A DNA stretch of 30,969 nt from Clostridia bacterium (GTDB lineage Bacteria > Bacillota > Clostridia > Christensenellales > Aristaeellaceae), in assembly GCA_045599485.1 (NCBI GenBank), contig JAZRWA010000050.1, forward strand, positions 1-30,969. Reading direction: 5' to 3'. Of the stretch, positions 7,664-27,682 are shown one piece after another. The notes below the pieces were generated by a model. That model was not told where the DNA came from, searched no databases, and worked only from the letters and a program-made list of their open reading frames with translations. Each line of letters starts with the position of its first letter. The first letter of the stretch is position 1. A program made the position numbers and the translations under genes.

Positions 7664-7760
7664 CAATTTTCCAAAGGCTTCGGCCTTTCGGAAGAATCCT
7701 GAACATACGCCCCTGCAGTGCATGAAACCTCATGTGTGCAGGGGCGTTATGCTGCCTGTA

Positions 7761-7813: not shown

Positions 7814-7829
7814 GATGGAAAGAACGATA

Positions 7830-8747: not shown

Positions 8748-8823
8748 GGCGCGTTCGTCTAGTGGTCCAGGACAGCGGTCTCTAAAATCGCGAACATGGG
8801 TTCGAGCCCCATACGCGCTGCCA
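8748..8823 (+). tRNA. tRNA with anticodon CUA (decodes UAG); Glu-type architecture, not Pyl-type
   Basis: Hand-folded 76-nt cloverleaf: GGCGCGT|TC|GTCT|AGTGGTCCA|GGAC|A|GCGGT|CTCTAAA|ATCGC|GAAC|ATGGG|TTCGAGC|CCCAT|ACGCGCT|G|CCA. The acceptor stem has 7 bp (G1.U72 wobble) and the anticodon stem has 5 bp. U33 is present, the anticodon is C34-U35-A36 (8782..8784), and A37 follows. The T-loop is TTCGAGC, the variable loop has 4 nt, and the CCA end is encoded. Confidence 0.85.
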
Positions 8824-8825
8824 GC

Positions 8826-8872
8826 AGGGAAAATCAGTGATTTCAAGAAATTTCTGATTTTCCCTTATTTTA
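8826..8872 (+). terminator. intrinsic terminator after the tRNA gene
   Basis: 12-bp stem AGGGAAAATCAG ... CTGATTTTCCCT (8826..8865), followed by TATTTTAT. Confidence 0.6.
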
Positions 8873-8888
8873 TCGTCTTTTTTGCAGA

Positions 8889-9634: not shown

Positions 9635-9682
9635 AAATAAAAAGTATAATGCTGTCTTTGTGTCATGTCAAGGAGGAATCCC

Positions 9683-11524
9683 ATGCGGCTGCTTCGGCAT
9701 CGCCTCTTCGCGCCTGTCTGCCTTTTTTTGTTTATCTTTCTCCTCACCATTCTGAGTGCCCGGAGCCTCATCCTCTCGACGCCCTCCATCGCCCGAATGG
9801 AACAGGAGCCCCATCATGCGCTCTATTGCATCAGCAGCTTTGATCACGATGCATACGGCGCCTGCACGGCAACACTTCGTCCGGGAAATAATCAAATGCA
9901 GGGGATGCGTATCCTGATCCTCTCCCGCGAACAGATATCCCTTCGCATCAACGGCCGGGATGCCGTGCCTGAAGCCGGTTCGGTGACGGGTCTCATCCGC
10001 TCCTATACGCTGCCCGAGGAATACAACGATGTGCTTCTTTTGACTTTTTCCTCCGCACCGGGGGCGGCCGCTGTCTGCACAGACAAGACGGCGGCCACGC
10101 TGCTGAGCGGTCTGAACTTCGGCCTGCCCGTCTTCTATGGTATTCTGCTGGCACTCATCATCAGCAGCTTTACGATGCTCATGATTCGCCCCATCGCCAT
10201 GCTGCAGGTCTTTACAGCGTACCTGGTCTGTGTCTTCCTCTGGGGCGTGCGCAACTACCTGGGGAACATGATGGACCTGTATCCTCTGCTTGGCATCATC
10301 TCGGAATTCTGTTTTGATTTTGCCGTGGTCCTGGGCGCGGCAACCTGCCTGTTCTTCAGCAAGCGGAATGAGGCCTTGATGCCCATCACCTCTGCGCAAA
10401 TGGCCAAACTGCTGGCGGTCTGCATCCTTTTCACCATCCTCTCACAGCTGTTACCATAGGACGTGACGGGGTGGCTCAGATTTCTCAGCTATACTGTCAG
10501 CGGCATCATCCTCCTCTATTCCGTATGGAAGGGCGGCTCTACCCCCTGGTGTGTCCTGATCGGGCTTGCAATCACGCAGGGTGCCCGTTTTTCCATCATG
10601 CTGTTCGACCTCCTCGGCATGCCCGCGTGCTTTCTCCTGCCCTATCTTCGCGGGCCCCACATCTTCATGATGCCCTTCATCATCGGCTGCCAGCTGCACA
10701 TCAATTCTGTCTACGACAAAAAGTTTTGCGAAGCCGAGCAGCTGGCGGCAAAACTGAGTTAGAGCAACCGCCTGCTGGACAAAAAGGTGGAGGAGCGCAC
10801 CAGGGAGCTGCGCGACCAGGAGCAGATCCGCACCAACCTGATGACCAACATCTTCCATGATCTCCGCTCACCGCTGCTCATCATGCAGGGCTGCATGGAG
10901 CACTTAAACCGCGGAGAAAATGATCCAAAGTATCTGGAAGTGCTCACCGGCAGGCTCTCCTTCATCACAAAGCTGACGGAGGATCTGTTCAATGTCGTCA
11001 AACTCGAAGACAACACCATGCTCATGGAAACGGAGCCTGTGCCGATTAAGCCCCTGCTCGAACAGACCATCACAGGCTGCATGCCCATGCTGTAGGAAAA
11101 GCAGATCGGCCTCAACACGGAACTGGCGGATGGTATGCTGGCCTGGGGCGATGAGATCTGGCTGCAGCGCGCGCTGCAGAACCTCATCGTAAACGCTATC
11201 TACTATTCCCCGCGCGGCAGCGCGCCCATCGCGGTGCGGTTGTGGCGCGAGGACCAATGGATCGCCATCTCGGTATCCGACTCGGGCAGAGGCATCTCCG
11301 AGGAGGACCAAGCGCAGATTTTTGAAAGATACTACCGCGTAAGTGCTTCCGCGAAGCATTCATCGAGCGGCCTGGGGCTCTCCATTGCGCACAGGATCGC
11401 AGAGCAGCACCGGGGAGAGCTTACCGTGCAGAGTGAACTGGGTGCAGGCTCCTGTTTTACCATGCGCCTGCCGCTGTGGAGCACCGAGGTGGATTCGATC
11501 GTTCCTGCCGAAAACACCGATTAA
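9683..11524 (+). CDS. multi-TM sensor histidine kinase; single reading frame containing three in-frame TAG codons
   Basis: Track ORFs 9665.., 10463.., 10787.. and 11135.. all share one frame. They are separated only by TAG at 10457..10459, 10760..10762 and 11093..11095. ATG at 9683 sits 6 nt after AAGGAGG. H-box FHDLRSPL, N-box LQNLIVNAIYYS, G-boxes DSGRGI and GLGLSI. TAA stop. Confidence 0.8.
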
Positions 11525-11765
11525 GAAGTTATTAAGATTATATCGTATCGTTATCCTTTATTCTTAACTTTCAGTATCGAATATCGTCCAAAAATGGACA
11601 AAAAGTCCACTTTTCAGCCTCATGCTGCTTTTACGCCGCAGCGTGGGGCTTATTTGTTGTGCCAAATCTTAATAACCGTTTAACTCTCTGCCGCCCGAAG
11701 CCTGCTATACTTGATTTTGTAAAATTCCGGACGAACCGGAAAACAACAGAAAGAAGGCTCTGATT

Positions 11766-12686
11766 ATGAAAGCGTTGAAACGTTTTGCCGGTGCTGCCTG
11801 CGCGCTGATGCTGGCTGTATCCGGCACAGCCCTGGCCGATTACAAGCCCGGCACGTACGAGGAAGTCGTGCGCGGCATGGGCGGTAAGGTATACTTTGAG
11901 ATCACTTTTGATGAGACCTCTCTGGTCGACATCAAGATCACCAAGCACCACGAGACCGAGGGCTTCGGCGACCGCGCCATCGAAAACGTGATCCCCGCGA
12001 TCATTGCCGCCCAGTCCACCGAAGTCGACAACTGGTCAGGCGCAACCATTACGTCCGAAGCCATCAAGAAGGCCGTTACCCAGGCCATGGAAGAGGCTTA
12101 TGTAGAAGGCGAAGCCGCTCCCGCAGGGGCTGCCTTCGTGCCCGGCACGTATGAAGAAGTCGTGCGCGGCATGGGCGGAAAGGTGTACTTTGAGATCACT
12201 TTTGACGAGAACTCTCTTGTCGACATCAAGATCACCAAGCATCACGAGACCGAAGGCTTCGGCGACCGCGCCATTGAGAACGTGATCCCCGCGATCATTG
12301 CCGCCCAGTCCACCGAGGTCGATAACTGGAGCGGTGCCACGATCACGTCCGAAGCCATTAAAAAGGCCGTCACCCTCGCCATGGAAGCGGCGGCTGTGCC
12401 TGCTGCCGCGGAAGCCATCTACAAGCCCGGCACGTATGAGGAAGTCGTCCGCGGCATGGGCGGAAAGGTGTACTTCGAGATCACCTTTGATGAGACTTCT
12501 CTTGTCGATATCAAGATCACCAAGCATCACGAGACCGAAGGCTTCGGCGACCGCGCCATCGAGAACGTGATTCCCGCAATCCTTGCCGCCCAATCCACCG
12601 AGGTCGACAACTGGTCCGGTGCCACCATCACGAGCGAAGCCATTAAGAAAGCCGTCACCCAGGCCATGGCAGAGGCTGCCAATTAA
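11766..12686 (+). CDS. exported protein made of three tandem FMN_bind domains (predicted ApbE flavinylation substrate)
   Basis: Sec signal peptide MKALKRFAGAACALMLAVSGTALA. Three ~95-aa units each contain GGKVYFEITFD...ETEGFGDRAIE...VDNWSGATITSEAIKKAV (FMN_bind pattern with the Dxx[ST]GAT motif). TAA stop. Confidence 0.85.
   Translation: MKALKRFAGAACALMLAVSGTALADYKPGTYEEVVRGMGGKVYFEITFDETSLVDIKITKHHETEGFGDRAIENVIPAIIAAQSTEVDNWSGATITSEAIKKAVTQAMEEAYVEGEAAPAGAAFVPGTYEEVVRGMGGKVYFEITFDENSLVDIKITKHHETEGFGDRAIENVIPAIIAAQSTEVDNWSGATITSEAIKKAVTLAMEAAAVPAAAEAIYKPGTYEEVVRGMGGKVYFEITFDETSLVDIKITKHHETEGFGDRAIENVIPAILAAQSTEVDNWSGATITSEAIKKAVTQAMAEAAN
11841..12683 (+). repeat. three tandem near-identical coding repeats (units start at 11841, 12135 and 12420)
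   Basis: The same ~250-nt block recurs with periods of 294 and 285 nt. The protein units are almost identical and differ mainly by synonymous or linker changes. Confidence 0.85.
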
Positions 12687-12763
12687 TCAATATTTTCCGG
12701 ATCCCCCCTGCGCTTTCGCGCGGGTGCGTATAGATCACAAGATCAAACAGGAGGTTACAACAA

Positions 12764-14341
12764 ATGAAGGACATTTCCAGAAGACAATTCCTCAAGGGCG
12801 CCGCGGCCGGTACCGTCGCCGCTGCCAGCGTCGGCATGCTGGGCACTTCCGCCATGGCGGCTGCTGTCAAGTCCACCGATGTGAAGTGGGATGCTGAATA
12901 CGATGTGGTCATCGTCGGTTACGGCGCTGCCGGCGCTACCGCCGCCATCACCGCTGCTGACAAGGGTGTCAAGGTTCTGCTGACCGAAAAGTGCCCCGAA
13001 GGCCAGGAGGGCGGCAACACCAAGTACTCCGGTCAGGGTCTGCAGTGCTTCGAAGGCAAGGAAAACGCCATCACCTACTACAAGAGCCTGCGCGGCTTCT
13101 TCAACACTCCCTCCGATGCCGTCATTGAAGCCTATGCCGATAAGGTCGCCGAAATGCGTGAGTGGCTGATCTCCCTGGGCGCTGACCCCGTAAAGCTGGA
13201 CGACTACAAGGGCACCGGCGAGCCCTGGCGCTCCAAGGGTGAATATCCCGAACTGGTTGGCGCCGGTCACATGCTCTACTACTGCGTCTCCGGCAACAGC
13301 TTTGACGGCGCTTTCTACAACCTGCTGCAGGACAACGTGGATGACCGCAGCGACAAGATCGATGTCTGGTTCGAAGCTCCTGCCCAGCACCTGGTGCAGG
13401 ATCCCGAGACCAAAGAGATCCTGGGCGTTCAGATCTGCAAGGAAGGCACTGTGATGAACGTACGCGCCAAGAATGGCGTCATCCTGACCACCGGCGGCTT
13501 CGAGAACAACCCCCAGATGGTGCAGGACTACCTGCAGCAGCCCTATGTGCAGCCCTACGGCTCCCTGTACAACACCGGTGACGGCATCAAGATGGCTCAG
13601 GAAGTCAATGCCGACCTGTGGCACATGAGCAACGCCGCCGGCTTCCTGTGGTGCTACCAGCCCCCGAAGGCCTCCCGTGCCATGCCCATCCGCACCGCCG
13701 CCAAGGGCATCTTTGTCGGCCCCTCCGGTGAGCGCTACATGGATGAGACCCAGTCCACCCGTCATGGCCGCATCTACTTCGCCGGTCGTTACATCCAGAT
13801 GCCCTCCCCCCTGCCCGCTTTCATGATCATGGACTCCGACGCGATCAAGTCCGGTAAGCTGTTCAGCTCCTTCTCCGCCAACAACGAGCAGGAGATCGCC
13901 GACGGCTACTTCATCACCGCCGACACCGTGGAAGAACTGGCTGACAAGATCGCTGCCCAGCTGCCCGAAGCTGTCCATCGTCCCTATGCTGCCACCACCT
14001 TCCAGCAGAACCTGGTGAGCACCATTGAAAAGTGGAACGCTTCCTGCGACGCCGGCAAGGACGAGCGCTACGAGCGTCCCGCCAACACCCTGACCCCCAT
14101 CAAGAACGGCCCGTTCTATGCTGTGGAGATCGGTATCGAAATGTACAATACGCAGGGCGGCCCCGTCCGCAACGAAAAGGGTCAGGTCATCGACCTGGAC
14201 GGCAACCCCATTCCCCACCTGTTCTCTGCCGGCGAGCTGGGCGCCATCTGGTCCGACTCCTACAACGGCGGCGGCAACCTGGGTGAATGCGTGGCCTTCG
14301 GCCGCATCTCCGGCGAGAACGCCGCGAATGGCCTGGTCTGA
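12764..14341 (+). CDS. Tat-exported FAD-dependent oxidoreductase (fumarate-reductase / 3-ketosteroid-dehydrogenase-like flavoprotein)
   Basis: Twin-arginine signal SRRQFLKGAAAGTVAAASVG. FAD motif DVVIVGYGAAGATAA. C-terminal LFSAGELG... block typical of FAD_binding_2 proteins. TGA stop. Confidence 0.85.
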   Translation: MKDISRRQFLKGAAAGTVAAASVGMLGTSAMAAAVKSTDVKWDAEYDVVIVGYGAAGATAAITAADKGVKVLLTEKCPEGQEGGNTKYSGQGLQCFEGKENAITYYKSLRGFFNTPSDAVIEAYADKVAEMREWLISLGADPVKLDDYKGTGEPWRSKGEYPELVGAGHMLYYCVSGNSFDGAFYNLLQDNVDDRSDKIDVWFEAPAQHLVQDPETKEILGVQICKEGTVMNVRAKNGVILTTGGFENNPQMVQDYLQQPYVQPYGSLYNTGDGIKMAQEVNADLWHMSNAAGFLWCYQPPKASRAMPIRTAAKGIFVGPSGERYMDETQSTRHGRIYFAGRYIQMPSPLPAFMIMDSDAIKSGKLFSSFSANNEQEIADGYFITADTVEELADKIAAQLPEAVHRPYAATTFQQNLVSTIEKWNASCDAGKDERYERPANTLTPIKNGPFYAVEIGIEMYNTQGGPVRNEKGQVIDLDGNPIPHLFSAGELGAIWSDSYNGGGNLGECVAFGRISGENAANGLV

Positions 14342-14377
14342 CAAGCCCGTATAGCCTTTATCTGAATAACAATTCAA

Positions 14378-14413
14378 CAGAGCCCGCAACTAAGCGGGCT
14401 CTGCCTTTTCTTT
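14378..14413 (+). terminator. intrinsic terminator after the flavoprotein gene
   Basis: CAGAGCCCGC-AACTAA-GCGGGCTCTG stem-loop, followed by CCTTTTCTTT. Confidence 0.7.
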
Positions 14414-14500
14414 ATCCGCACAAATGGATCCCTGATTGTCACAGGTTCCTCTGCAAGCAAACCGAAAGCCGATCTGTTTCCGTCGTTTACACGTGCGGGA

Positions 14501-15508
14501 TTAATCCTTACTCTTCTTTGCAAAGTTCCACGCGCTTTCGCACATATCCTCCAGCGTATGGATGGCTTCCCAGCCCAGCAGCGTTTTTGCCTTTGATGCA
14601 TCGGCCCAGAAGGCGGGCAGATCGCCGGCTCTGCGAGGACCGAAATTGTAAGACAATTTGATACCGTTCACCCGTTCAAACGTATCCACCAGCTCCTGTA
14701 CCGATACACCGTGTCCCGTGCCCAGGTTGACGGCCTCCGCACCGTGATGGTTTTCCGCGTATTCCAACGCCTTCAGGTGACCCACAGCCAGGTCCACCAC
14801 GTGCAGGTAATCGCGCAGACATGTGCCGTCCGGCGTCGGATAATCGTTGCCGAAGATCGTCAGCTTTTTCAGCTTGCCCATTGCCACCTGATTGATATAG
14901 GGCATGATGTTGTTGGGGATGCCGTTCGGATCGTCGCCCAGCAGCCCGGAGCCATGCGCGCCGATCGGGTTGAAATAGCGCAGCAGCACCGCACAGAAAT
15001 CCGGATGCACGGCTGCGTAATCCGTCAGAATGCGTTCGATCATCACCTTGGTCCAGCCATAGGGACTGGTCGAGCAGATGGCCGGCATGTCTTCCTTGTA
15101 GGGGTACGGATTGTTCGGGCCATACACTGTCGCGGAGGAGGAGAAAATAAACCGTTTGCAGCCGAACTCTTCCATGACCTCCAATAGTGTCATGGTGCTG
15201 TCCAGATTGTTGCGGTAATACGCAAGAGGCTCTTCCACGCTTCTGCCGACCGCCTTGAAGCCCGCAAAATGAATGACAGCATCCACAGGCGATTCGGAAA
15301 ACGCTTGCCGCAAACCGCCACGGTCCGCGCAATCCACCTGAAAGAAAGCAGGCCTTGTCCCCGTGATCTGCTCGATACGATCGATCACATCCGCCTTGGC
15401 ATTGGACAGATCATCCACAACAGTCACCTGATACCCGGCGTTTTGCAACTCCACCATCGTATGGCTGCCGATGTACCCGGCGCCGCCTGTTACCAATACA
15501 TTCATCAA
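14501..15508 (-). CDS. galE: UDP-glucose 4-epimerase
   Basis: MMNVLVTGGAGYIGSH Rossmann motif, YGWTK catalytic motif, full length of 335 aa. RBS GGAGGA. TAA stop. Confidence 0.9.
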   Translation of the reverse strand: MMNVLVTGGAGYIGSHTMVELQNAGYQVTVVDDLSNAKADVIDRIEQITGTRPAFFQVDCADRGGLRQAFSESPVDAVIHFAGFKAVGRSVEEPLAYYRNNLDSTMTLLEVMEEFGCKRFIFSSSATVYGPNNPYPYKEDMPAICSTSPYGWTKVMIERILTDYAAVHPDFCAVLLRYFNPIGAHGSGLLGDDPNGIPNNIMPYINQVAMGKLKKLTIFGNDYPTPDGTCLRDYLHVVDLAVGHLKALEYAENHHGAEAVNLGTGHGVSVQELVDTFERVNGIKLSYNFGPRRAGDLPAFWADASKAKTLLGWEAIHTLEDMCESAWNFAKKSKD

Positions 15509-16998
15509 AGGTCCTCCGTATTGACGCTCTCGATGAAACGCTCAAAGGCCGCCCGGCCTTCGGCATTCCGTTTGTATACGCCCGCGTGCTCCAGCACCAT
15601 GGCAAACACCTTGCCCACTTCGACACGCAGGATCTTTCCAGTGTTTTCTTTCGTAAAGGAATACTGCTACTTCAGTTCCGCTGCCCAGGACGCGTGCTTT
15701 TCCAGTGTGTCCGTCAGCGGAAGGTCATGGATCAGCGCGTTTTCCAAATCGGCCAGTTCCCGCTTAAGCCGGGCAGGCAGTACCGCCAGGCCCATGACCT
15801 CGATCAGACCGATGTTTTCTTTCTTGATGTGATGCAGCTCTGCATGCGGATGATAAACGCCCAGCGGATGCTCTTCATTCGTGATGTTGTTGCGCAGCAC
15901 CAGATCAAGCTCGTAATCCTCACCCCTGCGCCGAGCGATGGGCGTAATGGTATTATGCGGCACACCGTCTGTTTCGGCAAAAATGAACGCGGAAGCGTCC
16001 GTGTAAAACCGCCAATGTTCAAGGATACGATCCGCAAGCGCTGTCAGCCGCTCCGGATCGCTGCCTGTCAGGCGCAACACACTGAGCGGCCACTTCACAA
16101 TGCATGCGCGGATATCTTCAAACCCCATAAAGGACACCGTTTTTTCGGCGGGTGCCTTTTCCATGGGGAAAGTAAAGTGTCCGCCCTGAAAATGCTCATG
16201 GCTCAGAATACTGCCGCCCACAATGGGCAGATCCGCGTTGCTGCCCACAAAGTAGTGCGGGAAGGCCGTCACAAAATCCAGCAACTTGCGAAAAACTGAA
16301 CGATCGATGACCATCGGCGTATGCTGACAGTTGAAGACGATACAGTGTTCGTTGTAGTACACATAAGGACTGTACTGCAAAAACCACTGTTCGCCCGCCA
16401 CGCTGACGGGAATCACGCGATGATTCTGCCGCGGCGGCTGTTTTATGCTGCCGGCATAACCCTCGTTTTCGGCACACAGCTGACATTTGGGGTAGCCGGA
16501 AGGCTTTGCGCTGCGGCTCGCCGCAATGGCTTTGGGATCCTTTTCCGGCTTACTCAGGTTGACGGTGATCACCAGGTCGCCGTACTCAGTCGCCACTTCC
16601 CAGCGCAGGTCTTTGGCGATGCGGTAGCGGCGAATGTAGTCCGTATCCTGCGAAAATGTATAGTACCAGTCGGTGGCTTCTTTGGGCGATTGTGCATACA
16701 GATCGGCAAAGCGGCACCGCACCTCATGAGGGCGGGGCGTCAGAATGCCCATCAGGCGGGTATCCAGCAGATCACGGCTTGTCACATCGTCCGGGCATAC
16801 TCCGCGCCGGACGGCGTCATCCAGCAAACCTTTCAGTATTTCCTCCAGCGGCATATCCACGCCCTCGGATGCTGAATACGCATCCAGGGACAATGCGTCC
16901 AGCAGTTGATTTACAATGAAGGTGCTGTCGCATGCCTCGATAAGCCCGTGCCGGATGCCGTAACGGATCAAAGAACTCAGGAATTCGTCGTTGCTCAA
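15505..16998 (-). CDS. galT: galactose-1-phosphate uridylyltransferase (type 2, Firmicutes-like) with one in-frame TAG
   Basis: TTG start at 16998 after AAGGAGGAAGAAC. The track ORF stops at TAG 15667..15669, but the frame continues for 53 more codons (QYSFTKENTGKILRVEVGKVFAMVLEHAGVYKRNAEGRAAFERFIESVNTEDL) to TGA 15505..15507. That TGA overlaps the galE ATG in an ATGA arrangement. Confidence 0.8.
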
Positions 16999-18143
16999 AG
17001 TTCTTCCTCCTTCATTGATACGATCGAACCACCGGTCGAAGTAATGGAAAGCACCCTGCAGTGATCCTCACCCAGAACACGATCCATGCCTTGCTTGAAG
17101 TCATTCACCCTGTCGAGGGGCACAAATGCTTGGATCGTACCTGCAAATCCGCCGCCGTGCACGCGGCAGGCACCGTGACCCTCCAGCAAGCTTTCTGCCA
17201 AGGCCAAAGCCAGAGCGACTTCCTGATGACCCTTTTGCGCTGCCGGGATCACATTTTGCAGGTAACGCCATGAGGAGATGCCCGACGCCTTCACATCGGA
17301 AAGGAACGCGGCGAAATTGCCTTCCTGCAATGCCTGTTTCTGGCGCAGCACACGCTTGTTTTCTTCAAAAACATGCATGGCCCGCAGCACCGCCCGATCG
17401 CCGACCGCCGCGCGTAGCTCTTTTAATTGCCCCCAAAATGCCGTTTCCGGCACATCCCTCAAATATGTTTTTTCGAAGAAAGCACATACCGCTTTTAGTT
17501 CCTGCGTAATGGCCGTGTATTCATCCGTCAGATCCGCATGATCGGCACCGGTATCAATAATACACAGAGCATATCCCGCATGGGCAAAATCAAAATCGAT
17601 CTTTTCCACGACCGGTGTTTCCGGGCAATGAAAATCGATGAATACCATGCCGCCCACACTGCACGCGATCTGATCCATCAAGCCGCAAGGCTTGCCAAAG
17701 TACACATTTTCAGCATACTGACCGATTTTTGCGATCTCGACCGCGTCCAGCTGACTGTGAAAGAACAAAGTGTTCAGAATGTTGCCCATCAGCACTTCAA
17801 AGGACGCGGACGAGCTAAGCCCGCTGCCGGGCAATACAGTGGAGGAAACCTTCGCCTCAAATCCTCCCAGCTGTGCACCCCGATCCCGAAAGGCAGAGGC
17901 AATGCCACGCACCAGGGCCGCGGTGGTATTCTTTTCCTCCCCGCGCACAGCAAGATCGTGGATATCCACACTCACGCACGGATACCCCTCGGACGCGATC
18001 CGCATGACAGAAGTGGCATTGGGGATGACTTCCGCCACTGTTGCCAGCTCGATCGACGCAGCCAGTACACAGCCGTGCTGATGATCGGTGTGATTTCCGC
18101 TGATCTCGGTGCGACCGGGAGCCGAAAAAACCATTTTCTTCAT
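16995..18143 (-). CDS. galK: galactokinase
   Basis: GHMP kinase motifs (APGRTEISGNHTDHQHG; PGSGLSSSASF). ATG at 18143 after AAAGGAAAA. TGA stop overlaps the galT start. Confidence 0.9.
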   Translation of the reverse strand: MKKMVFSAPGRTEISGNHTDHQHGCVLAASIELATVAEVIPNATSVMRIASEGYPCVSVDIHDLAVRGEEKNTTAALVRGIASAFRDRGAQLGGFEAKVSSTVLPGSGLSSSASFEVLMGNILNTLFFHSQLDAVEIAKIGQYAENVYFGKPCGLMDQIACSVGGMVFIDFHCPETPVVEKIDFDFAHAGYALCIIDTGADHADLTDEYTAITQELKAVCAFFEKTYLRDVPETAFWGQLKELRAAVGDRAVLRAMHVFEENKRVLRQKQALQEGNFAAFLSDVKASGISSWRYLQNVIPAAQKGHQEVALALALAESLLEGHGACRVHGGGFAGTIQAFVPLDRVNDFKQGMDRVLGEDHCRVLSITSTGGSIVSMKEEEL

Positions 18144-18229
18144 TGTGTTTTCCTTTGATATCACAGTGTCAAAGCCCGCTTCGTTCCTACAGAAACTTCA
18201 TGCGCAACTGGCTTGATAAATCCAAACAC

Positions 18230-19204
18230 TTACCTTACGCGAAGAACAACTTTGCCGATGTTTTCGCCATTCTGAAGGATCGCATGGGCCGCCGCCGCCT
18301 GTGCCATCGGCAGTACTTTGTAAATGGTCGGACGAATTTCGCCACTTTCCAACTTAGGCCAGACATCACGAACCAAAGCATTAAGCAACTCTGCTTTTTC
18401 TTCTACACTGCGTTTGCGGAGCATGCTTCCCTTGAATACAATGCCACGGGTCAAAACAGCCCGGAGCGGAATATTTGCAGTTGTTCCGGCCAAAGTAGAA
18501 ATCAAGACCCAGCGGCAACCTTCATTGACATAAGGGAAGCATTGTCCGATTGTGTCTCCCGCCAGACAGTCGATGGCAACATCCACGGGATGACCCTTCT
18601 CTGCTTCCCGTTTCAGTACATCAGCTGTATCCTATGCGGATGTATCGATCACAACGTCCGCATGCAGATGCGAGATTTTTTCTTTAATATCAGCATTCAG
18701 TACGGATGTAATGACAAAGGCTCCAAAAGCCTTCGCCATCGGAATGCCTACGGAGGCCAGACCACTGGCGCCAGCTGGGAAGAATAACGTCTCGCCCGGC
18801 TTGAAGGCACCTTCTCCGAACAGGTTCAGATAACAGGTAGCATATGCTTCGGGAAGAGACGCCGCTTCTTCAAAGGACAAACCTTTCGGAATGGGCATCA
18901 CCATATTCTGCGGAACAGCCGCATATTCCGCATACCCACCGCCGCCCAGCAAGGCACATACCGGATCGCCGACTTTCCACCGGGTCACGCCTTCGCCCAC
19001 TGCGCTGACAACACCTGCCACCTCCAGACCCATCCATTCAGGCCAGCCTTTGGGAGAAGGATAGGTGCCTGCACGCTGAAGCAAATCTGCTCTGTTCAGT
19101 GCCGCCGCATGCACCTCAATTACGACTTTGCCAGCTTCGGCTGCGGCATCCGGCACTTCACTCCAAACGAGATTCCGTTCCTTGTCAATCAACATGGCAT
19201 ACAT
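18230..19204 (-). CDS. NAD(P)H:quinone oxidoreductase / zinc-type alcohol dehydrogenase superfamily protein with one in-frame TAG
   Basis: Track ORFs 18632..19249 and 18230..18586 share a frame and are joined across TAG 18632..18634. MDR-family pattern (AAALNRADLLQRAGTYP...; AGASGLASVGIPMAKAFGA; C-terminal GKVVL). ATG at 19204 after GGAGG. TAA stop. Confidence 0.8.
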
Positions 19205-19220
19205 CGGTTTCAGCCTCCGT

Positions 19221-20288
19221 TTATTCGTTTTGATACATGATTTCACCATTCAGCAATGTCAGCGTGCATTTATATCCCCGGTCGATCTGGAATGCTTTCC
19301 CGTCTTCTGCAGCAAGGGAAAAATCAATATTCCTCTCATCCAGAACCGCAATGTCAGCTGGTCCGTTCAGGCAAAGTCTCCCCCACTCGGGCTGGTTCAA
19401 CGTATCTGCAGCAGAAGTGGTCACAGCACGAAGCACTGCCTCTTCCGACATTCCAAGAGCACGGAACAGACTCATGCAGGCGGTCAAACCGTATATACCA
19501 CCCCTGTTATAAGCGTTCAGCCTTGTAAGATCGGTACTGATGGTAGTTGGCCATATAGATTGAGCTGCTGCAGCCAACAGTACGTCACGATCGGTATGAA
19601 CATACCCCGCATGACCGGTATCCAGAATGATTCCCTTTTTCTGCGCCGATTTCAGACATTCAAATTTTTCAGTCATGGCATTATGCACTCCGCCATGATA
19701 GATATGCGTAAGGATATCCCCTGCGGATAATGTATCCACGATTTCCGACATCGGCACCGGAGAATGAGAACAGTGAACGGTCACCTTCAGGTTCCGTTTT
19801 CGTGCAAAGTCACACACTTCTTTCAACGAGGTTATCGATTGTACTTCTGAAATGGTTGTGTCGAAATAGATCTTGACACCTGCCGCCCTGTTTCCGAATG
19901 CCTCCAGAAGTCTTTCTGTCTCCGCAAAGCTGGCGTGATCATTGTGAATCTGAGTACATACGAATACCACGCTTTTTACCCGGAACAGTTCCAGAAGATG
20001 CCGGTCTCCTTTTTCCGCACCGCATTCGGCAGTGGCGGTCACTCCGAAAGGCAGACAGCCCAGTTCCGCCGGCGTACCGAACCGATCGGTGGAAATTCCA
20101 TTCAGATGCGTATGGATATCCACCAAACCCGCCGATACGATTCGACCCTTGGCATCATACACATATTCCGCTTCAAAGCCGTCTGTATTTCCAAGGTCTG
20201 CAATTTTGCCATTCTGGATGGCGATGTTCCCCTAGAAAAAACGTTCACCATCCCATATCCGGCCGTTTCTGATCAAGATTCTTTCCAT
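19221..20288 (-). CDS. amidohydrolase-family metallohydrolase (deacetylase/dihydroorotase-like) with one in-frame TAG at codon 19
   Basis: ATG at 20288: MERILIRNGRIWDGERFF-TAG-GNIAIQNGKIADLG...GLVDIHTHL. The N-terminal beta-strand motif and the metal-binding HxH lie on opposite sides of TAG 20232..20234, in one frame. TAA stop. Confidence 0.75.
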
Positions 20289-20309
20289 GTGTTTTCTGCC
20301 TGATTGTGT

Positions 20310-22070
20310 TTACTGATATCTTCCGTCAGGGTTGATGGTCAGATTGCGGAAACGTTCCACATCCACCTTGGGCTTACGGTCAGGGGTCAGAATACCGTTC
20401 TGTTCCTGCTATACATCTGTCAGCTGCGTATATACATATCCCTGACAATACGGGATGGCGCGTGCTGCATCCGTCAGTGATTTATACCGCTCAAAGAACG
20501 CCTCTTCTCCGGCGACCTTATCATGATATCCCCATGAGCCGTTGTCTTTATCGTCAAACGCGATCCCGCCGTATTCCGTCAGAAGGAAGGCTTCCTTTCC
20601 GCTCCATTCCTTGCCATCACAGTAAGCCATGCGGTGATCGCAGGCATGCTCTGTAATTTCTTCCCGGCTTGCAAAATGCTTAGCGAGTACATCACCCGTT
20701 GCGGCATAGTCATGCAGACCGAAAATATCGCTTTGAACGCATTCCCAACCATCATTGGTGGAGACCATTCTCGTTCCATCCAATGCTTTTACCTGGTAGT
20801 ACAGCATGTTTGCAGTAGCCTGCATCTGCTTGTTGGCGTACATTCGATCCAAGCCCCAGCTTTCATTCACAGGAACCCAGGTAATAACCGATGGATGATT
20901 GAAATCACGCTCGATTCCACCCGTCAGCGTTTCGCTGGTATTGACCGCTGCTTCATCCGTAAATTCGTACGCGCTCGGAATCTCCTCCCATACGAGCAAG
21001 CCCAACTTGTCCGCCCAGTAGTAATAACGCGGGTCTTCCAGCTTCTGATGCTTTCTTGCGCCGTTATAGCCCAGTTTCAGCGTCCACTCGATATCTGCTT
21101 TGATGGCTTCGTCGCTAGGCGGTGTAATCAACGATTCCGACCAATAGCCCTGATCCAGTACCAAGCGCTGGTAGATGGGCTTGTTGTTCAACAGCACACG
21201 GCCATCCGCAACATGTGCCTTGCGCATGCCAAAGTAAGTGCTGACTTCATCGCCGGTATCCAGTTCCAGCTTCACATCGTACAATTTCGGGGTCTTTGGT
21301 GTCCATCGCACAAGCTGGTGCAGCGTACTGCCGTCCACCATGTCCACCACCATGCGCTGCGTGCGCTGATCCATCACCATGGTCTGTTCCCGCACAGTCG
21401 TTCCTTCCATGGAGACTGTTATCTTCACGCGTACGGGACTTTGCGGTATTTCATTCAGCGTGACCTGAATTGAAGCCGTACCCAGATCCACATCTGGGGT
21501 GACATGGGCGGTTTTCACATACACTCTGCCCGCTTCTTCCAGATATACAGTTTGCCAGATGCCGCTCGTGGGCGTATACCAGCAACCAAACCACTGATCC
21601 TTCCACAGCTGCTTGCCACGCGGCTGGGTACAATCTCTGGCGTCCTCCACACGGACGCACAGATCGTTCTCCCCCTCCCGGAGATACGGCGTAATGTCAA
21701 ACGCGAAAGGGGTGTATCCTCCCTTATGGGTACCCACACATTGGCCATTCACATAGACCATCGCCGCAAAATCCACTGCTCCGAAACGAAGCAGCAGCTT
21801 ATTTCCGGAGGCGATCGCCGGCTTTTCAAAAGTACGCCGGTACCACAACACCGGATGATGGGTTGCATCGTGGATGCCGCTCAGCTCGCACTGATAACAG
21901 AAAGGCACCATGATCTTCTTATCCAGCGTCACATCGGGATTGAACCATTTTTCGGCAAGACCTTTGTTTTCGTCATCATAACCAAACTGCCATTCACCAT
22001 TCAGGTTGACCCAATGAGGGCGGATAAAGTCGGGACGCGGGTGTTCGGGACGCGGAATCATAGTGCTCAT
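20310..22070 (-). CDS. glycoside hydrolase family 2 enzyme with one in-frame TAG near the C-terminus
   Basis: N-terminal RPEHPRPDFIRPHWVNLNGEWQF GH2 pattern with TIM-barrel region. The track ORF ends at TAG 20409..20411, but the frame continues QEQNGILTPDRKPKVDVERFRNLTINPDGRYQ to TAA 20310..20312. RBS GGGAGGAA. Confidence 0.8.
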
Positions 22071-22099
22071 TTGGTGTTCCTCCCATTATCGATGTTTCG

Positions 22100-23116
22100 T
22101 TATTCTCTCAGCAAAGACCAGTCAAATACATTGGCCAATGGCATTCTTTGCTCCGTACACAGACGCTTATACAACAAACCACAGTCCTTTGGCGATGCCA
22201 CTTCATGGATCATGGGGCGGACCATCATCTTGCCATTTTCCAGAAAACCAAGAATCATCCGGAAATCATCATGTCGAGTCCAATATCCTTCTCTCGAGTC
22301 ACCTGTCGGACGGACAAAATTGTGAGCACCAATGAGTTGAATACCGGGACGATGTACCTCGCTGTAAAAATCGATAGGGCAGTCGGATACACGGGTACAA
22401 CCGGTCAGGGAAATTCTTCCCATGAAAGCCGCAACCGAGAGCGCTTGCTTAAGGGCACGGGAAGAACCGGTTACTTCTACATTGGCATTGATCATTCGAT
22501 CACCTGTCAGTTTGCGCACTTTCTCCCGAAAGTCGGAGTCCGCCGGACTCAACGTATAATCTGCACCGAGTTTGGATGCAATTTCACAGCGTTCCTCATC
22601 AAAATCCACGCCAATCACCGGCAGTCCACCGCTGAGTCTGGCTGCCTGCACCGCAAACATGCCCAAAATTCCCAATCCGGTCACCATTGCCGTTTCGCCC
22701 ATTTGCAAGCGGGTTTTTCGGAGTCCCTGAACTCCCATGCTACCCACGATAACCATTGCGGCTTCCATCTGGTCGACATTCTGGGTAAAGGGATAATAGC
22801 CGTCTCCGTTCTTTGTAAAGGCAGCCTTAACATACTGGCTATGTCCCAGATGATCCGTCAATACCCGATCTCCAATTTGAACATCGGTAACATTTTTGCC
22901 CACCTCAACCACATGACCTGCACCGGAATACCCAAGCAGTTTGGGGAATTTCTGTGCGACATTGGGCGTATTGATCAGATTTGCTTTTTCCGTTCCGGCG
23001 CTGACGGCAGTATAGTCATTCTGAATCAATACTTCATCATCACGCAGTTCGCCCAGTTCGACTTCAACAAGCTCCGCTTTCTCAACGTCCGTAAACAATA
23101 TCTGTTTTGTTTTCAT
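22100..23116 (-). CDS. zinc-dependent alcohol/polyol dehydrogenase (MDR family)
   Basis: Track ORF with ATG at 23116 after GGAGA. Contains GHSQY..., the GLGILGMFAVQAARLSG Rossmann motif, and other MDR-like blocks. TAA stop. Confidence 0.8.
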   Translation of the reverse strand: MKTKQILFTDVEKAELVEVELGELRDDEVLIQNDYTAVSAGTEKANLINTPNVAQKFPKLLGYSGAGHVVEVGKNVTDVQIGDRVLTDHLGHSQYVKAAFTKNGDGYYPFTQNVDQMEAAMVIVGSMGVQGLRKTRLQMGETAMVTGLGILGMFAVQAARLSGGLPVIGVDFDEERCEIASKLGADYTLSPADSDFREKVRKLTGDRMINANVEVTGSSRALKQALSVAAFMGRISLTGCTRVSDCPIDFYSEVHRPGIQLIGAHNFVRPTGDSREGYWTRHDDFRMILGFLENGKMMVRPMIHEVASPKDCGLLYKRLCTEQRMPLANVFDWSLLRE

Positions 23117-23151
23117 TGTTTTATCTCCGTAATTTTTTTCGAATGAAGGGC

Positions 23152-24150
23152 TCAAAGAATGCCGCAGGCCTGCAGCGTAGCACGCTGCAAGGCGATCTCA
23201 TAATCATATGTGAAAGGATTCTCTTTTTCTCCGCGAATATAGGCTGCAAAGTCCTTGACCTGCTCGTCATAGCGGCCAACCTGTGTTTTGAACCCCGTCA
23301 AATATTGCTTCGAATCATGATAGGTAGGCGGGTTGTCTTTGCTGAAAGACACCGAAATCATGGAAGGGCCTTCCAACGGCTTGACTTCCACTGTGCCTTT
23401 CGTGCCGCAAATGACCAGTTGGCGTCTGCCAAAGCCATTGACTTCACGAGAGGTCGTGCGTACAGTGCAGCTGGCATTGGGATAAGTGACCACTGCCAAC
23501 GCGTTATCCTGCAACGCCACATCCTGCGGAATCGTTCGTTTGATAAAAGGAACGACCGATTCGGGATTGGGACCCAGGATTTGAAAGATCATGTCAAACA
23601 GGTGACAGCCGAAGATATACATGGTTCCGCATTTGAACGACTTGCTGAGCCATTGGCGGTACGGTTCGCCATGAGCCGTGCTCATCTGTGTATCGATTTC
23701 GAAAATCTCCCCCAGTGCACCGCTCTTTGCAATGGCAATGGCCTCCTGAATGACCGGGTTATAGCGGTACATATATCCCATCTGAACAACCAGATGCTTT
23801 TCGCGTGCCGTGTTCATGACCTCAGCAAACTCATTGATATCTTCGCCACCGGGTTTATCCATATGAATATGATAGCCCTTCCGAAGACATTTCAAAGCTG
23901 CCTGATCCAGGTCTGGCACGTCCGTTTCCACAGAAATAGCCTCCAGATCCGGGATGGCAAACAATTCCTATTCACTCAATCTGGGGAGTCCAATATAACC
24001 TGGCAGATTACCGCGCTTTTCCCACCAGGATTCATCGGGTTCGCAAACACCTACCACATCAAAAATTTCCGGGAAGCGACGAAAGCATTTCATTTTTTCT
24101 TCGCCATGGTTGTGCCCCAGTCCGTACTGCGCGATTTTGATCTTATTCAT
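23152..24150 (-). CDS. Gfo/Idh/MocA-family oxidoreductase with one in-frame TAG
   Basis: ATG at 24150 after GGAGGA. The N-terminal Rossmann segment MNKIKIAQYGLGHNHG...VVGVCEPDE is joined in frame across TAG 23968..23970 (LSE-TAG-ELFAIPDLEAISVETDV) to the remainder of the protein. TGA stop. Confidence 0.8.
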
Positions 24151-24244
24151 ATTGCATCCTCCTGCCTGCGATTTGCCCATCTTGAGCTGTTTTCCAAGTC
24201 AGTATAACCCTCGTCACCGTTCCGGGACAATTTGCTTTGCGTCA

Positions 24245-26458
24245 TCAGGCATTTGTCTTTCGGCTTTGACGATACTCACTGGGAGTCATTCCCTCCTGAA
24301 GTTTGAATTTGCGTAAAAAAGATGGAACATCATTATAACCAACAGCATGGACAAGCGTTTGAACAGTATCTGATCCGGAAATAAGCCTCCGTTTGAACTC
24401 TTCCATGCGAAGGTATGCAATATACTGAACAAAAAGCATGCCTACATCCTGCCGCAGGATGTCATTGATCTGAGACGGGCGCATCTATATCTGTTGAGAA
24501 ACAATGTGAATGGACATTTCATAATCGGTAAAATGGCTATGAATGTATTCCATAACACGGCGCTTGTTAGAAAACTGTCGTTCCTCCTCTAACTCCGATT
24601 TCTTCATACAGGCAAATTGAATCATTTCACAGCCATGTAGAATCAGAGTATCTGTCGTAGGTGATTGAATCATTTTTTCAATCATATCATCCGGGATCGC
24701 AATTCCTTCTTCTTTCATTTGCATAACCAAGGATTGCACCAAGGCATTCACCCTGAACTGAAACATCAGCACAGAAGCAGCAGAGGAAGAAAGAGTGACG
24801 ATTAATTCCTTCCAATATACAAACGCCTGATCTGTCTGAATTCTTTGAATGGATTCCATCAGAAGCGAGCATATCTGAGTTTCCTCCCATCCATTGCTTT
24901 TAGGCGGAGTCATAAAGCATATAGCTTCCGTTCCCGGTCTGCGCAGGCGAATTGCAGCAGCTGCATGATTGAAGCTTTCGGACAAAGCAAGCGGGTCGTC
25001 AATTACAGATCCCACACCGATCACTGCACGATGATATCCTCTTTGACGTATGGTACCGAGCCATTTTTCTGCCAATGATTTCATTGTCTCGTGTTTCTAT
25101 CCCGCCGCATCGCTAAAATTAACTATAACAGCCAATGCATGTTCATTGGGCAGTTCTCCCGGCAGCATACGGATTCCTTTGGGTTCCTGCAAAAAAATCG
25201 CTGATACATTGGATACTGTCATCTCCGCCTTTTCACCGGGAAGTATGTAAAACACGCAGAAATGGACATGTGGAAAATGAACGTCAGAACAGGTGAGCAA
25301 ATAGTCAAGCGCATCTTTGGACTTGATCTTTCCGAAAACCAATTGCTGTACCAGGTGGCTTGCCGCATATAGATGAATCTGCCCCAACTTCAACGTCAGG
25401 ATTTCATTCTCTGTTGTTAACTGTTCATGGTACATTTTTAGAAACGCAAGCTCATTTTCATTTGTTAACAGTTTTCGTCCGCCGGAGAGCTATGTAACAT
25501 ACTTGCGGATTGGAAGAGCATTCGTAAAACTGATGAAGAGCGACAACACCATAAGAAGACCCGCAATTGCAGCAAACAGGATGCTTTGGGATGTGCGAAC
25601 GCTACGGATACTTTCAAAGAAGTTTTCCTATGTATCCAGCAGACAGAAACTGAGTGACCGAACACTGTTCAGAATTCTCAGCATTTCATAGCGTGTCCCG
25701 CTCTCCGCAAAAGAGAGCACACCTGTTCCGGTATGTTTAAGTATTACATTTTGATTGACCGGACTTTCTCCGGATGCATAAAACAGTCCCATAGCTTTGG
25801 TCGGATAGATGAGGACCGTACCGTTTGTTTCTCCCAAATAACTGCTGAACAAATCCTGGAGATATTCAGACGGCATCATATACAAAATCACTATGCTGCT
25901 CTCATGGTCTGGCGTAATAGAAAAAGGCACCAGATACACCAATTGATCACGTAAAGTCGCTTCCTGCGTTTTCAATCGAAGCAACGTGGAAGAGCGGCAA
26001 CTCATGATGGTCTTGTACAACTGACTCTGATCCGGATCATATTCTTTGGATAGATATTGCTGAAAAGCAGAATAGCTCTCACGTCCTTCACAACTATAAA
26101 TACTTTTATCGCCCCGGATATACACATAAATGCCGACTCGGTTATCAATCTTGGTTTTCATGGATTCCAGGATTGCTTTCAAAGCTGATTCATAAGCTAT
26201 ATTCACGATACGATTTTCACTCATCGTGAAGCACTGGCTGAGGGTATAATTACTTTCCAACATGAAATCAAAACGGTCAAGGAGTGTATCAAATTCGCTT
26301 ACTGCACTTTTAAACGAATCCAGCCGGGATGATGCTGTATACTGGATTGAAGACTGAACATTGCCGTTCACGATGATTGCGATAAAAATGAGCACAAAAA
26401 TAGAAGCCAAAAATGTAATCGTCAAATTTTGCAGGAGCATACTGCCTTTTTGTTTCAT
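24245..26458 (-). CDS. membrane-anchored AraC-family sensor/transcription regulator with four in-frame TAG codons
   Basis: A single frame runs from ATG 26458 (RBS GGGAGA) to TGA 24245..24247. It encodes TM1 (LTITFLASIFVLIFIAIIV), an extracytoplasmic domain, TM2 (ILFAAIAGLLMVLSLFISF, in the segment between two TAGs), a cytoplasmic region, and a C-terminal AraC HTH (GYNDVPSFLRKFKLQEGMTPSEYR). The TAGs are at 25628..25630, 25490..25492, 25097..25099 and 24485..24487. Confidence 0.75.
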
Positions 26459-26622
26459 TTTCTTTTTTCTCCCGACAGATATTAAATCCATTTTGTTCAT
26501 TATACCAACAGGTTTCTTTCTTTTCAACGGACCATTCAAGCTGTTTGTGCAAAACAAATCGAAAATGACGGAAAACAAATCAAAACTTACAAAACAGCAA
26601 AGGCAGTAATTTGCACAACAAA

Positions 26623-26651
26623 TTGTTATTTGCGTCTCATCTTCCTATAAT
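26623..26651 (+). promoter_or_regulatory. candidate sigma-A promoter of the sugar ABC operon
   Basis: TTGTTA at 26623..26628, 17-nt spacer, TATAAT at 26646..26651. A small AACAA-A-TTGTT palindrome overlaps the -35 element. Confidence 0.4.
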
Positions 26652-26734
26652 GGAATCAGAAAACCAACGAGCGCAATGCGCTACAGTTCTCACCTCCAAT
26701 AAAAAAAGATGAAACCAAGGAGCAATGGATCTAT

Positions 26735-27682
26735 ATGACAAATATCAGGCAGACCTTACCTCCGGCAAAACGAAGCTTCTGGCAAAGGCTGAAAACCGAC
26801 TTTCGGAAACACTGGATGGTATATGCAATGCTTCTGCCGATTCTCGCCTATTACTTGATTTTCAAGTACGGATCCATGGGATATCTTGCAATTGCTTTTG
26901 AGGATTTCAAACCGGTCAAAGGCATACTGGGAAGTAAATGGGTCGGATTCAAGAACTTCATCAAATTTTTCAGCATGGATACCAGTTCAAGGCTTATTCG
27001 CAACACGTTCTTGCTGAATTTTTATGATATCTTGTTCAGTTTTCCCGCCCCCATCCTGCTGGCTTTGATGATCAATTAGCTAACGCTGAAGCGGACAAAG
27101 AAGCTAATCCAAACTGTAAGCTATGTCCCCCATTTTATTTCCATGGTCGTCATTTGCGGCATGCTCAGAGAATTCTGCTCATCTGATGGTCTATTCAACC
27201 AGGTTCGCATGATGTTGGGACTTGAAGGCTACAACCTGCTGACAAATCCGCGCCTGTATCGTACGATTCATATCGGCAGCGGTATTTGGCAAAGTGTTGG
27301 CTGGAGCAGCATCATCTATCTGGCCACGCTGTCCGGTGTAGATACCCAGCTGTACGAAGCAGCTTATATTGACGGTGCTAACAAAATGCAGCGTATCATC
27401 CATGTTACGCTTCCGGCACTGGTGCCCATCATTACAGTTCAGTTCATCATGAGAATCGGACATATCATGTCAGTTGGCCATGAAAAGATTATTCTGTTGT
27501 ATAACGAGATGATTTTCGAAACAGCCGATGTAATCTCCACATATCTGTATCGTTACGCATTGCTGACCGGTAAATACAGTCTGGGTACCGCTGTTGGTCT
27601 GTTTAACTCTGTTATCAATATCATCATTCTCGTGATTGTCAACAGAACCTTCTCCAAGTTGACCGAGAACAGTCTGTGGTAA
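26735..27682 (+). CDS. LplB-type (COG4209-like) sugar ABC transporter permease with one in-frame TAG
   Basis: Track ORFs 26735..27079 and 27143..27682 share a frame. Across TAG 27077..27079 the sequence reads PAPILLALMIN-TAG-LTLKRTKKLIQTVSYVPHFISMVVICGML, a contiguous conserved block of this permease family. TAA stop. Confidence 0.8.

Follow-up and report, generated by a model that had tools for sequence, protein, structure and literature searches.

The DNA analysed here is a 30,969-bp stretch (positions 1 to 30,969, forward strand, of contig JAZRWA010000050.1 in assembly GCA_045599485.1, assigned to a Clostridia bacterium of the family Aristaeellaceae; 'the window' denotes this stretch in its entirety), and the subject is the meaning of the codon UAG, which occurs in frame within about a third of its genes, together with a tRNA gene carrying the matching anticodon CUA, hereafter tRNA(CUA). 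The window starts with an EamA transporter, a flavoprotein reductase, an ATP-binding cassette (ABC) transporter and two functionally unassigned genes, followed by the tRNA; next come a response regulator and histidine kinase pair, a flavin mononucleotide (FMN)-binding protein, a flavoprotein and the galE-galT-galK genes; the last block, dedicated to sugar utilisation, consists of a quinone oxidoreductase (QOR), an amidohydrolase, a GH2 glycosidase, an alcohol dehydrogenase, a Gfo/Idh/MocA oxidoreductase, an AraC-type sensor, two ABC permeases, a short-chain dehydrogenase/reductase and a solute-binding protein. All these genes serve cellular metabolism, transport or regulation. Pfam search and annotation detected no gene of phage, plasmid or pyl type among the 25, and megablast of the window against phage and plasmid records returned nothing meaningful. 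The window is ordinary bacterial chromosome.

Recomputation of all in-frame stops in the 25 genes yielded 13 TAG codons in eight genes, one of which carries four, whereas the 9,569 sense codons contain neither TAA nor TGA in frame and the genes are free of frameshifts (Table 1); TAG accounts for ~0.14% of the window codons. The 24 complete genes terminate with TAA (14 genes) or TGA (10 genes), and none with TAG. A preceding reading of the DNA letters, made without database searches (the sequence-only reading), had reported the same 13 codons, and its coordinates and flanking peptides are reproduced exactly, as is its claim that the split genes are interrupted by TAG only and resume in the same frame. 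Its further claim that recognisable domains continue past the TAGs is borne out by the Pfam domains ADH_zinc_N, GFO_IDH_MocA, HTH_18 and BPD_transp_1, each of which spans a TAG, by HisKA and HATPase_c, which lie 3' of TAGs, and by the identity to orthologues that is retained downstream. The probability that it attached to the series, (1/3)^13 or ~6e-7, turns out to be naive: under a random-lesion null with the codon usage of the window, 47% of the single-base paths to nonsense lead to TAG, so that P(13/13) = 5e-5, which is less extreme and still decisive. The 13 TAGs share no surrounding motif, which argues against systematic base-calling error.

Table 1. Features of the window, residues aligned with the TAG codons in homologues, and segments shared with sister contigs (HK, histidine kinase)
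Feature	Position	Strand	Details	Residue in TAG column
tRNA gene, anticodon CUA, tRNA-Glu type	8748..8823	+	CCA end encoded; ARAGORN, Rfam tRNA model	
Terminator-like hairpin, then T-rich tract	8826..8865	+	19-nt inverted repeat directly 3' of the tRNA	
Sensor histidine kinase	9665..11524	+	3 TAGs: 10457-10459, 10760-10762, 11093-11095; HisKA and HATPase_c downstream	HK-265: Glu in P0006 (72% identity); HK-366: Glu in P0006; HK-477: variable
galT	15505..16998	-	1 TAG: 15667-15669	Lys in L089 and P0127; variable overall (Thr, Gln, Lys)
Quinone oxidoreductase (QOR)	18230..19249	-	1 TAG: 18632-18634; ADH_zinc_N spans TAG	Glu in L084 (84%) and 3 PDB homologues
Amidohydrolase	19221..20288	-	1 TAG at codon 19: 20232-20234	Variable; Asp/Glu commonest
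GH2 glycosidase	20310..22070	-	1 TAG: 20409-20411; homologues align through C-terminus	Gln in L084 (81%); Glu in L001 (70%), L010, L011, L013 and 3 PDB entries; Met farther out
Gfo/Idh/MocA oxidoreductase	23152..24180	-	1 TAG: 23968-23970; Rossmann domain spans TAG	Glu in L084 and L085 (84-86%)
AraC-type membrane sensor/regulator	24245..26500	-	4 TAGs: 25628-25630, 25490-25492, 25097-25099, 24485-24487	Lys/Gln, Gln/Glu, Asp/Asp, Gln/Gly in two homologues (52%, 46%)
LplB-type ABC permease	26735..27682	+	1 TAG: 27077-27079; BPD_transp_1 spans TAG	Glu in 7/7 LplB-family homologues: L084 (80%) and six more, down to 32% identity
Matched by L089 (ENA ERZ27247129)	14493-18129		89% nucleotide identity	
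Matched by L090 (ENA ERZ27247129)	602-6976		91% nucleotide identity	
Matched by L091 (Logan SRR27361835)	5692-8875		88% nucleotide identity	
Matched by L092 (NCBI GCA_024404275.1, 'MAG: Clostridia bacterium')	3826-8875		90% nucleotide identity	

In the case of GalT, 119 homologues of 493-524 aa extend beyond the TAG column, and in the AraC-type sensor, for which the full-length homologues P0001 and P0002 are available, HTH_18 spans the last TAG; the stop-to-stop frame of this gene holds two further TAGs upstream of the likely start codon, which are excluded from the 13. Public annotation takes TAG as a stop, so that GalT is deposited as a protein of 443 aa (P0126) and the amidohydrolase as one of 300 aa (P0246); both shortened proteins come from NCBI, and the TAGs are therefore present in the deposited assembly.

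Whether the segments downstream of the TAGs are translated can be gleaned from comparison with orthologues in two contigs, namely the Logan contig L084, free of internal stops, whose gene order matches the right half of the window and whose proteins are 80-88% identical, and L085, which covers the AraC and Gfo genes. With dN of 0.08-0.13 and dS saturated, an untranslated tail would have decayed, yet the identity downstream of the TAG is about equal to or above that upstream (0.85 vs 0.71 in LplB, 0.87 vs 0.85 in Gfo and 0.83 vs 0.86 in QOR), which is why the post-TAG segments are taken to be translated. A lack of conservation after the TAGs, which the sequence-only reading had named as counting against it, is not seen. 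By this measure, the interrupted genes are not pseudogenes, and purifying selection acts on both sides of the TAGs.

The tRNA(CUA) aligns over its full length to the Rfam tRNA model (55.5 bits) and folds into a cloverleaf whose D-loop contains GG, whose T-loop reads GGTTCGA and whose anticodon stem and variable loop measure 5 bp and 4 nt, respectively. It had been described as a canonical tRNA, not of the pyrrolysine (Pyl) kind, located 1.6 kb before the first TAG; the measured distance is 1.63 kb, and the cloverleaf is a standard one of the tRNA-Glu type. ARAGORN labels the gene 'tRNA-Pyl', a label assigned from the CUA anticodon only. Genuine tRNA-Pyl is recognised by a short D-loop without GG, a 3-nt variable loop, a 6-bp anticodon stem and an atypical T-loop; the architecture found here is different, and pyl genes are absent from the window. 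All BLAST matches that carry a named tRNA annotation are tRNA-Glu (from Escherichia coli and several phages), a few weaker, partial matches being labelled tRNA-OTHER or tRNA-TERM (suppressor) or left unannotated. Over the D-arm (positions 8-25), the gene does not differ from a tRNA-Glu(CUC) on the human-faecal scaffold L087, whereas the tRNA-Gln of a related Clostridia metagenome-assembled genome (MAG), L048, differs in having a U1-A72 pair, another D-arm and a shorter D-loop.

The identity elements were read from the cmscan alignment of the tRNA(CUA) and compared with the published set, in which the major determinants for glutamyl-tRNA synthetase (GluRS) are the augmented D-helix with U11-A24 and U13-G22..A46 and the lack of residue 47, further tRNA-Glu determinants are U34, U35, C36 and A37 and the pairs G1-C72 and U2-A71, C36 ranks among the strong determinants for the GluRS of E. 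coli, and the Glu-to-Gln amidotransferase relies on the U1-A72 pair (PMC9976931). The tRNA(CUA) keeps U11-A24, U13-G22..A46, the absence of residue 47, U35 and A37. Position 34 is C34, as in the CUC isoacceptor, and further determinants of the anticodon loop and the acceptor stem are replaced, with A36 for C36, G1.U72 for the first pair and G2-C71 for the second, so that the U1-A72 pair is absent as well. Charging of the tRNA(CUA) with glutamate is accordingly a proposal, since A36 takes the place of a strong E. coli determinant.

The window is not alone in these features. Via the 90%-identity protein clusters of ten window proteins, in which near-identical proteins from elsewhere accompany GalK, GalE and the ABC ATPase, four sister contigs from three other datasets were reached (L089 to L092 in Table 1), which bring the DNA of this lineage covered by the analysis to ~76 kb (~31 kb in the window and ~45 kb in the sister contigs). 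Each of the four shares with the window the tRNA (L091 and L092), intragenic TAGs (L089 to L091) or both. In L091 and L092, the two contigs that cover its site, the tRNA(CUA) is syntenic and identical in 76 of 76 positions, compared with 64% identity in the intergenic DNA upstream and 60% downstream; the hairpin behind it can form in each of the three genomes, A-U pairs having changed to G-C in a compensatory manner. These comparisons show that a dedicated tRNA(CUA) is under strong selection in the lineage. Synteny with the sister contigs stops just past the hairpin, such that the tRNA is located at a breakpoint (window 8826-8875, L091 ~3140-3410, L092 ~4985-5250), with the left flank conserved; to the right of it, the window has the response regulator and histidine kinase genes, and the sisters have a DEAD/PLD-type helicase.

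The TAGs of the sister contigs resemble those of the window. In L089, one is located within the AraC_binding domain of a regulator, and another within Glyco_hydro_4C, in a gene that is annotated as two; in L091, a TAG falls within a CotH domain; in L090, it stands between the two halves of a protein, and the same-frame open reading frame resumes 6 nt later. Every gene of L089 to L092 that was called as TAG-ended is an interrupted gene of this kind, and the remaining genes end with TAA or TGA. The lack of TAG terminators in the 24 window genes is weak evidence when taken alone (p ~0.1) because relatives with the standard code use TAG for ~8-15% of their stops (8 of 98 in loci from GTDB and 2 of 13 in L084 and L085 combined; L012 has 3 of ~16). 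When the lineage is pooled over non-orthologous genes, including ~21 from the sister contigs, none of the ~45 genes ends with TAG, with p ~0.01 against the ~10% of the relatives.

Outside the lineage, TAG functions as an ordinary stop. The Gfo gene of L084 and the AraC gene of L085 end with TAG, and the window orthologue of each ends with TGA. In the more distant L012, a human-gut MAG (HGM11580), TAG is the true stop of larE, larC and livH. The GH2 gene of L012 (10001-11746) contains a TAG at ~11630, at an otherwise invariant Gln; since three genes of this genome end with TAG, this codon is attributed to an ordinary nonsense mutation or an error, and L012 was rejected as a second recoded genome and used as a control. 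A scan of the GTDB representatives with the GH2 protein yielded no match above 70% identity, and therefore the species is apparently not among the representatives scanned; the best matches, at or below this level, belong to Christensenellales- or Oscillospirales-type Clostridia MAGs. Because the members of the lineage share 88-91% DNA identity and relatives at 80-88% protein identity stop at TAG, we infer a narrow recoded clade, roughly at the genus level.

The residue inserted at UAG was approached by tabulating the homologous residues in each TAG column (Table 1), a check that the sequence-only reading had put forward; among the closest homologues, the residue is mostly Glu. In the seven columns for which a homologue with at least 72% identity is available, Glu occurs in five, Gln in one (GH2) and Lys in one (GalT); the protein P0006, which informs the histidine kinase columns, is apparently from the sister species because one ATPase is identical between its NCBI assembly and the ERZ27247129 sample. 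The four AraC columns carry little weight, with two usable homologues at 52% and 46% identity; PDB alignments are uninformative for the Gfo, amidohydrolase and GH4 TAG columns, and GalT has no PDB relative. The summed log-odds over the 13 columns are 13.2 bits for Glu, 11.6 for Gln and 6.9 for Asp. The ancestral residues observed, Glu, Gln and Lys, are the three that are encoded by NAG codons, one step from TAG, and these codons are about evenly represented in the window (GAG 211, CAG 220, AAG 268); an excess of Glu such as the 5:1:1 seen in the close comparisons is expected if GAG to TAG is the synonymous route. Glu is favoured over Gln because the columns with the closest homologues are mostly Glu, the family-invariant Glu of LplB included. 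Weighing the columns together with the tRNA-Glu body, glutamate appears to be by far the best candidate for the inserted residue, glutamine a distant second and any other amino acid improbable.

Taken together, these observations make it quite probable that UAG serves as a rare sense codon, most likely for glutamate, in a narrow group of uncultured Clostridia, where a paralogue of tRNA-Glu reads it. The core of the sequence-only reading, that UAG is translated by a non-Pyl tRNA(CUA), is thus reinforced by the purifying selection, the conservation of the tRNA and the TAGs of the sister contigs. The broader proposal, that across a roughly genus-level clade of gut Clostridia UAG has become a glutamate codon genome-wide through this paralogue, with release factor 1 (RF1) lost or disabled, is held with much less assurance, the balance tipping slightly in its favour; the fate of RF1 and the genome-wide scope are extrapolations from the loci covered. 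A plausible course of events would begin with a paralogue of tRNA-Glu(CUC), in which a change of C36 to A36 would have produced the anticodon CUA and Watson-Crick pairing with UAG. GluRS would charge this tRNA with glutamate since the structural identity set of tRNA-Glu is retained, and the charged tRNA would escape the Gln amidotransferase since it lacks the U1-A72 pair. Former TAG terminators would have been swapped for TAA or TGA, both of which are readable by release factor 2 (RF2); RF1 would then have been lost or disabled, leaving RF2 for the UAA and UGA stops, and TAG would have re-emerged inside genes by point mutation, mostly from GAG and more rarely from CAG or AAG.

Several observations weigh against this interpretation. 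The A36 of the tRNA should impair charging with glutamate unless the GluRS of the organism is relaxed; such Clostridia may lack glutaminyl-tRNA synthetase (GlnRS), and a non-discriminating GluRS may already tolerate a purine at position 36. The profile-style score parts Glu from Gln by just 1.6 bits, and the GH2, GalT and AraC columns either favour Gln or carry no information. TAG terminators are rare (~10%) even in the relatives with the standard code, and with the coverage limited to the window and the sister contigs, UAG may still end some genes. Finally, the galT gene of L089 is split by a frameshift (11146-12638), and the LplB-like permease of the same contig has an in-frame TAA (15532-15534) near its start, at a Tyr position, so that some lesions in L089 are errors or decay, which weakens the evidence from the TAGs of this contig.

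The alternative that survives best, although it is unlikely, is that UAG is indeed sense and read by the same tRNA but specifies glutamine, either through charging by a non-discriminating GluRS followed by GatCAB amidation or directly through GlnRS, as in the TAG-to-Gln codes of phages. Reassignment of UAG to Gln is the commonest natural outcome, and apart from the small difference in score, this alternative can draw on the GH2 column, where Gln stands both in L084, the closest homologue, and in 14 of the 18 nearest relatives from the genome search, on the GalT column, in which Gln is second commonest, on the presence of Gln in three of the four AraC columns, and on the first pair of the tRNA, which is not the canonical G1-C72 of tRNA-Glu. 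It has to contend, however, with the Glu in five of the seven close-homologue columns, among them the invariant residue of LplB, with a tRNA body of the Glu type, unlike the tRNA-Gln of the clade with its U1-A72 pair and shorter D-loop, and with the need of amidotransferases for that very pair.

Marginally less probable still is partial suppression, under which RF1 would be kept, TAG would remain a stop elsewhere, and the tRNA(CUA) would cause context-dependent read-through, with lower output from the interrupted genes, perhaps for the sake of regulation. The moderate significance of the missing TAG terminators (~0.01 over ~45 genes) leaves room for it, and so does the concentration of the TAGs: two sensor/regulator genes, those for the histidine kinase and the AraC-type sensor, hold 7 of the 13 TAGs in 17% of the codons (binomial p = 0.002). 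But TAGs occur in eight of the 25 genes, four of them in a single gene and some at conserved core residues, the full-length products would be scarce with RF1 competing, and the orthologous TAG stops of relatives are now TGA in the window.

It is highly improbable that the TAGs reflect gene decay by nonsense mutation, or mistakes of sequencing or assembly, with the tRNA an incidental neighbour. Lesions do occur in these genomes, as the frameshift and the TAA of L089 attest, and L012 has a TAG nonsense codon in its GH2 gene while stopping normally at TAG. In the window, by contrast, all 13 are TAG with no lesion of another kind (P = 5e-5), selection is equal on either side of them, a common motif is lacking, the truncated proteins of the public collection place the TAGs in the deposited assembly, and the tRNA(CUA) is perfectly conserved over three assemblies. 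Least credible of all is the notion that UAG encodes pyrrolysine or another non-canonical residue, or that the contig derives from a TAG-recoded phage or a eukaryotic contaminant, since for all that ARAGORN calls any CUA tRNA 'tRNA-Pyl' and TAG-recoded phages are common in gut samples, the tRNA is canonical, the window has neither pyl nor phage genes nor meaningful similarity to phage or plasmid records, the Glu-type CUA pattern is unmatched in IMG/VR, TAA is used as a stop, the gene order is bacterial, and the relatives at 80-98% protein identity are bacteria.

The distribution of the TAGs along the window is uneven also in that the first nine genes, with 29% of the codons, contain none (p = 0.011); in L089, a non-orthologous AraC regulator likewise has a TAG. 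The enrichment in sensor and regulator genes could stem from weak selection where expression is low, or from a regulatory, bldA-like use of the rare codon. The G+C content of the window declines steadily from ~0.58-0.59 at 1-15 kb to ~0.42 at 25-27 kb, and GC3, the G+C content at third codon positions, from ~0.8 to ~0.45. The low-GC sugar-utilisation block has its nearest homologues in L084, and the high-GC left part pairs with the sister contigs; the right-hand, low-GC block may be a horizontal acquisition. The gene for the FMN-binding protein (11841-12676) is made up of a 285-bp unit repeated 2.9 times in tandem (86% matches), encodes three FMN_bind domains and adjoins a gene for a flavoprotein reductase with a TAT (twin-arginine translocation) signal.

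The pattern of a Glu-type tRNA with the CUA anticodon was also sought in other collections. IMG/VR yielded no match to it, and a scan of metagenomes yielded three contigs, L081, L082 and L083, none of which is related to the window. The unrelated, GC-rich (59%) 1.6-kb contig L081 (Ga0114945_10105293) carries at 1476-1551 a tRNA-Glu-type gene with the CUA anticodon, which may be an independent Glu-type amber suppressor; there is no interpretable TAG-bearing gene on this 1.6-kb contig. L082 (537-611) and L083 (50-124) encode a tRNA with the CUA anticodon and a Glu/Gln-like D-arm inside tRNA arrays; both are very AT-rich (35% and 17% G+C, respectively) and probably come from recoded phages or organelle-like genomes. 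The gut phage Phass-1 of the 'code 15 clade' (L086; OQ749652.1) has two adjacent suppressor tRNA(CUA) genes at 222-390, the second of which, with a length of 91 nt, starts its D-arm in the same Glu-like manner as the window tRNA (83% identity over 42 nt).

If the proposed reading of UAG is correct, it would be, for bacterial chromosomes, the first natural reassignment of the amber codon and, for prokaryotes, the first stop-to-Glu code, caught at an early stage, with TAG making up ~0.1% of codons and still ending genes in relatives at 80-88% protein identity. Because relatives with the standard code are so close, the order of events in codon capture would become testable, namely, tRNA duplication and anticodon change, removal of the TAG stops and what became of RF1. 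With a bacterial UAG-to-Glu code, the list of genetic code tables would gain an entry, the stop reassignments described in bacterial chromosomes being all of UGA, and UAG reassignment being otherwise known in phages, Pyl users and eukaryotes only. There is also a practical side: annotation of such MAGs under table 11 truncates or splits ~1/3 of the genes seen, as with the shortened GalT and amidohydrolase, which degrades protein databases and completeness estimates and may exclude such genomes from reference sets. A natural pair of tRNA-Glu(CUA) and GluRS, in an organism possibly without RF1, would be of interest for code engineering and for the study of phage-host code conflicts, and a rare codon served by a single tRNA raises the possibility of bldA-like control over the TAG-enriched sensor and regulator genes.

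In the Codetta screen, every known stop change in bacteria involves UGA; a 2026 k-mer screen of ~2.7 million assemblies lists UGA, CGG/CGA and AGG as the only known or suspected bacterial changes, puts forward ACA and another change of CGG as candidates not listed before and regards sense calls for TAA and TAG as contamination; and a 2026 predictor of translation tables offers, for UAG, the archaeal UAG-to-Pyl code only. The literature searched up to 2026 contains no natural UAG reassignment of this kind in a bacterial chromosome, in agreement with the sequence-only reading.

Among the known systems, the closest in setting is 'code 15' of gut phages (crAss-like phages, Phass-1 and others), in which, as in the window, UAG is read through a genome-encoded suppressor tRNA(CUA). 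These are, however, phage genomes, the amino acid is Gln and the hosts use the standard code, whereas the TAGs of the window reside in chromosomal metabolic and regulatory genes and the tRNA is of the Glu type and unmatched in IMG/VR. The UGA-to-Trp and UGA-to-Gly codes (tables 4 and 25, in Mycoplasmatales, Absconditabacteria/Gracilibacteria and some Patescibacteria) are likewise bacterial stop-to-sense changes with a cognate tRNA, and here too the release factor that matches the codon would be expected to be lost; those codes, however, concern UGA and have lost RF2, compared with UAG and a predicted loss of RF1 here. With regard to the amino acid, the counterparts are peritrich ciliates and Blastocrithidia (tables 30 and 31), where stop codons became glutamate codons and cognate tRNAs of the tRNA-Glu type read the reassigned stops; there, the genomes are nuclear ones of eukaryotes, UAA and UAG both changed and eRF1 is altered, whereas in this bacterium UAG alone is affected and UAA is still the commonest stop. 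The Pyl system of bacteria and archaea, including the archaeal code in which all TAG codons are Pyl, also reads UAG with a tRNA(CUA) but requires tRNA-Pyl, PylRS and pylBCD; the window has a canonical, Glu-like tRNA and no pyl genes, and its TAG columns hold Glu, Gln or Asp and are not Lys-like. The mechanism, finally, has its nearest analogue in laboratory amber suppressors and RF1-deleted E. coli (supE, C321.deltaA): a single anticodon change makes a CUA suppressor, and once the TAG terminators are removed, RF1 can be dispensed with and UAG is freed. Such strains were engineered or arose spontaneously in the laboratory, whereas this lineage is natural and carries TAG in ~1/3 of the genes seen. 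The capture of a stop codon by a mutated tRNA is a known class of change; the combination of codon, amino acid and host has no known precedent.

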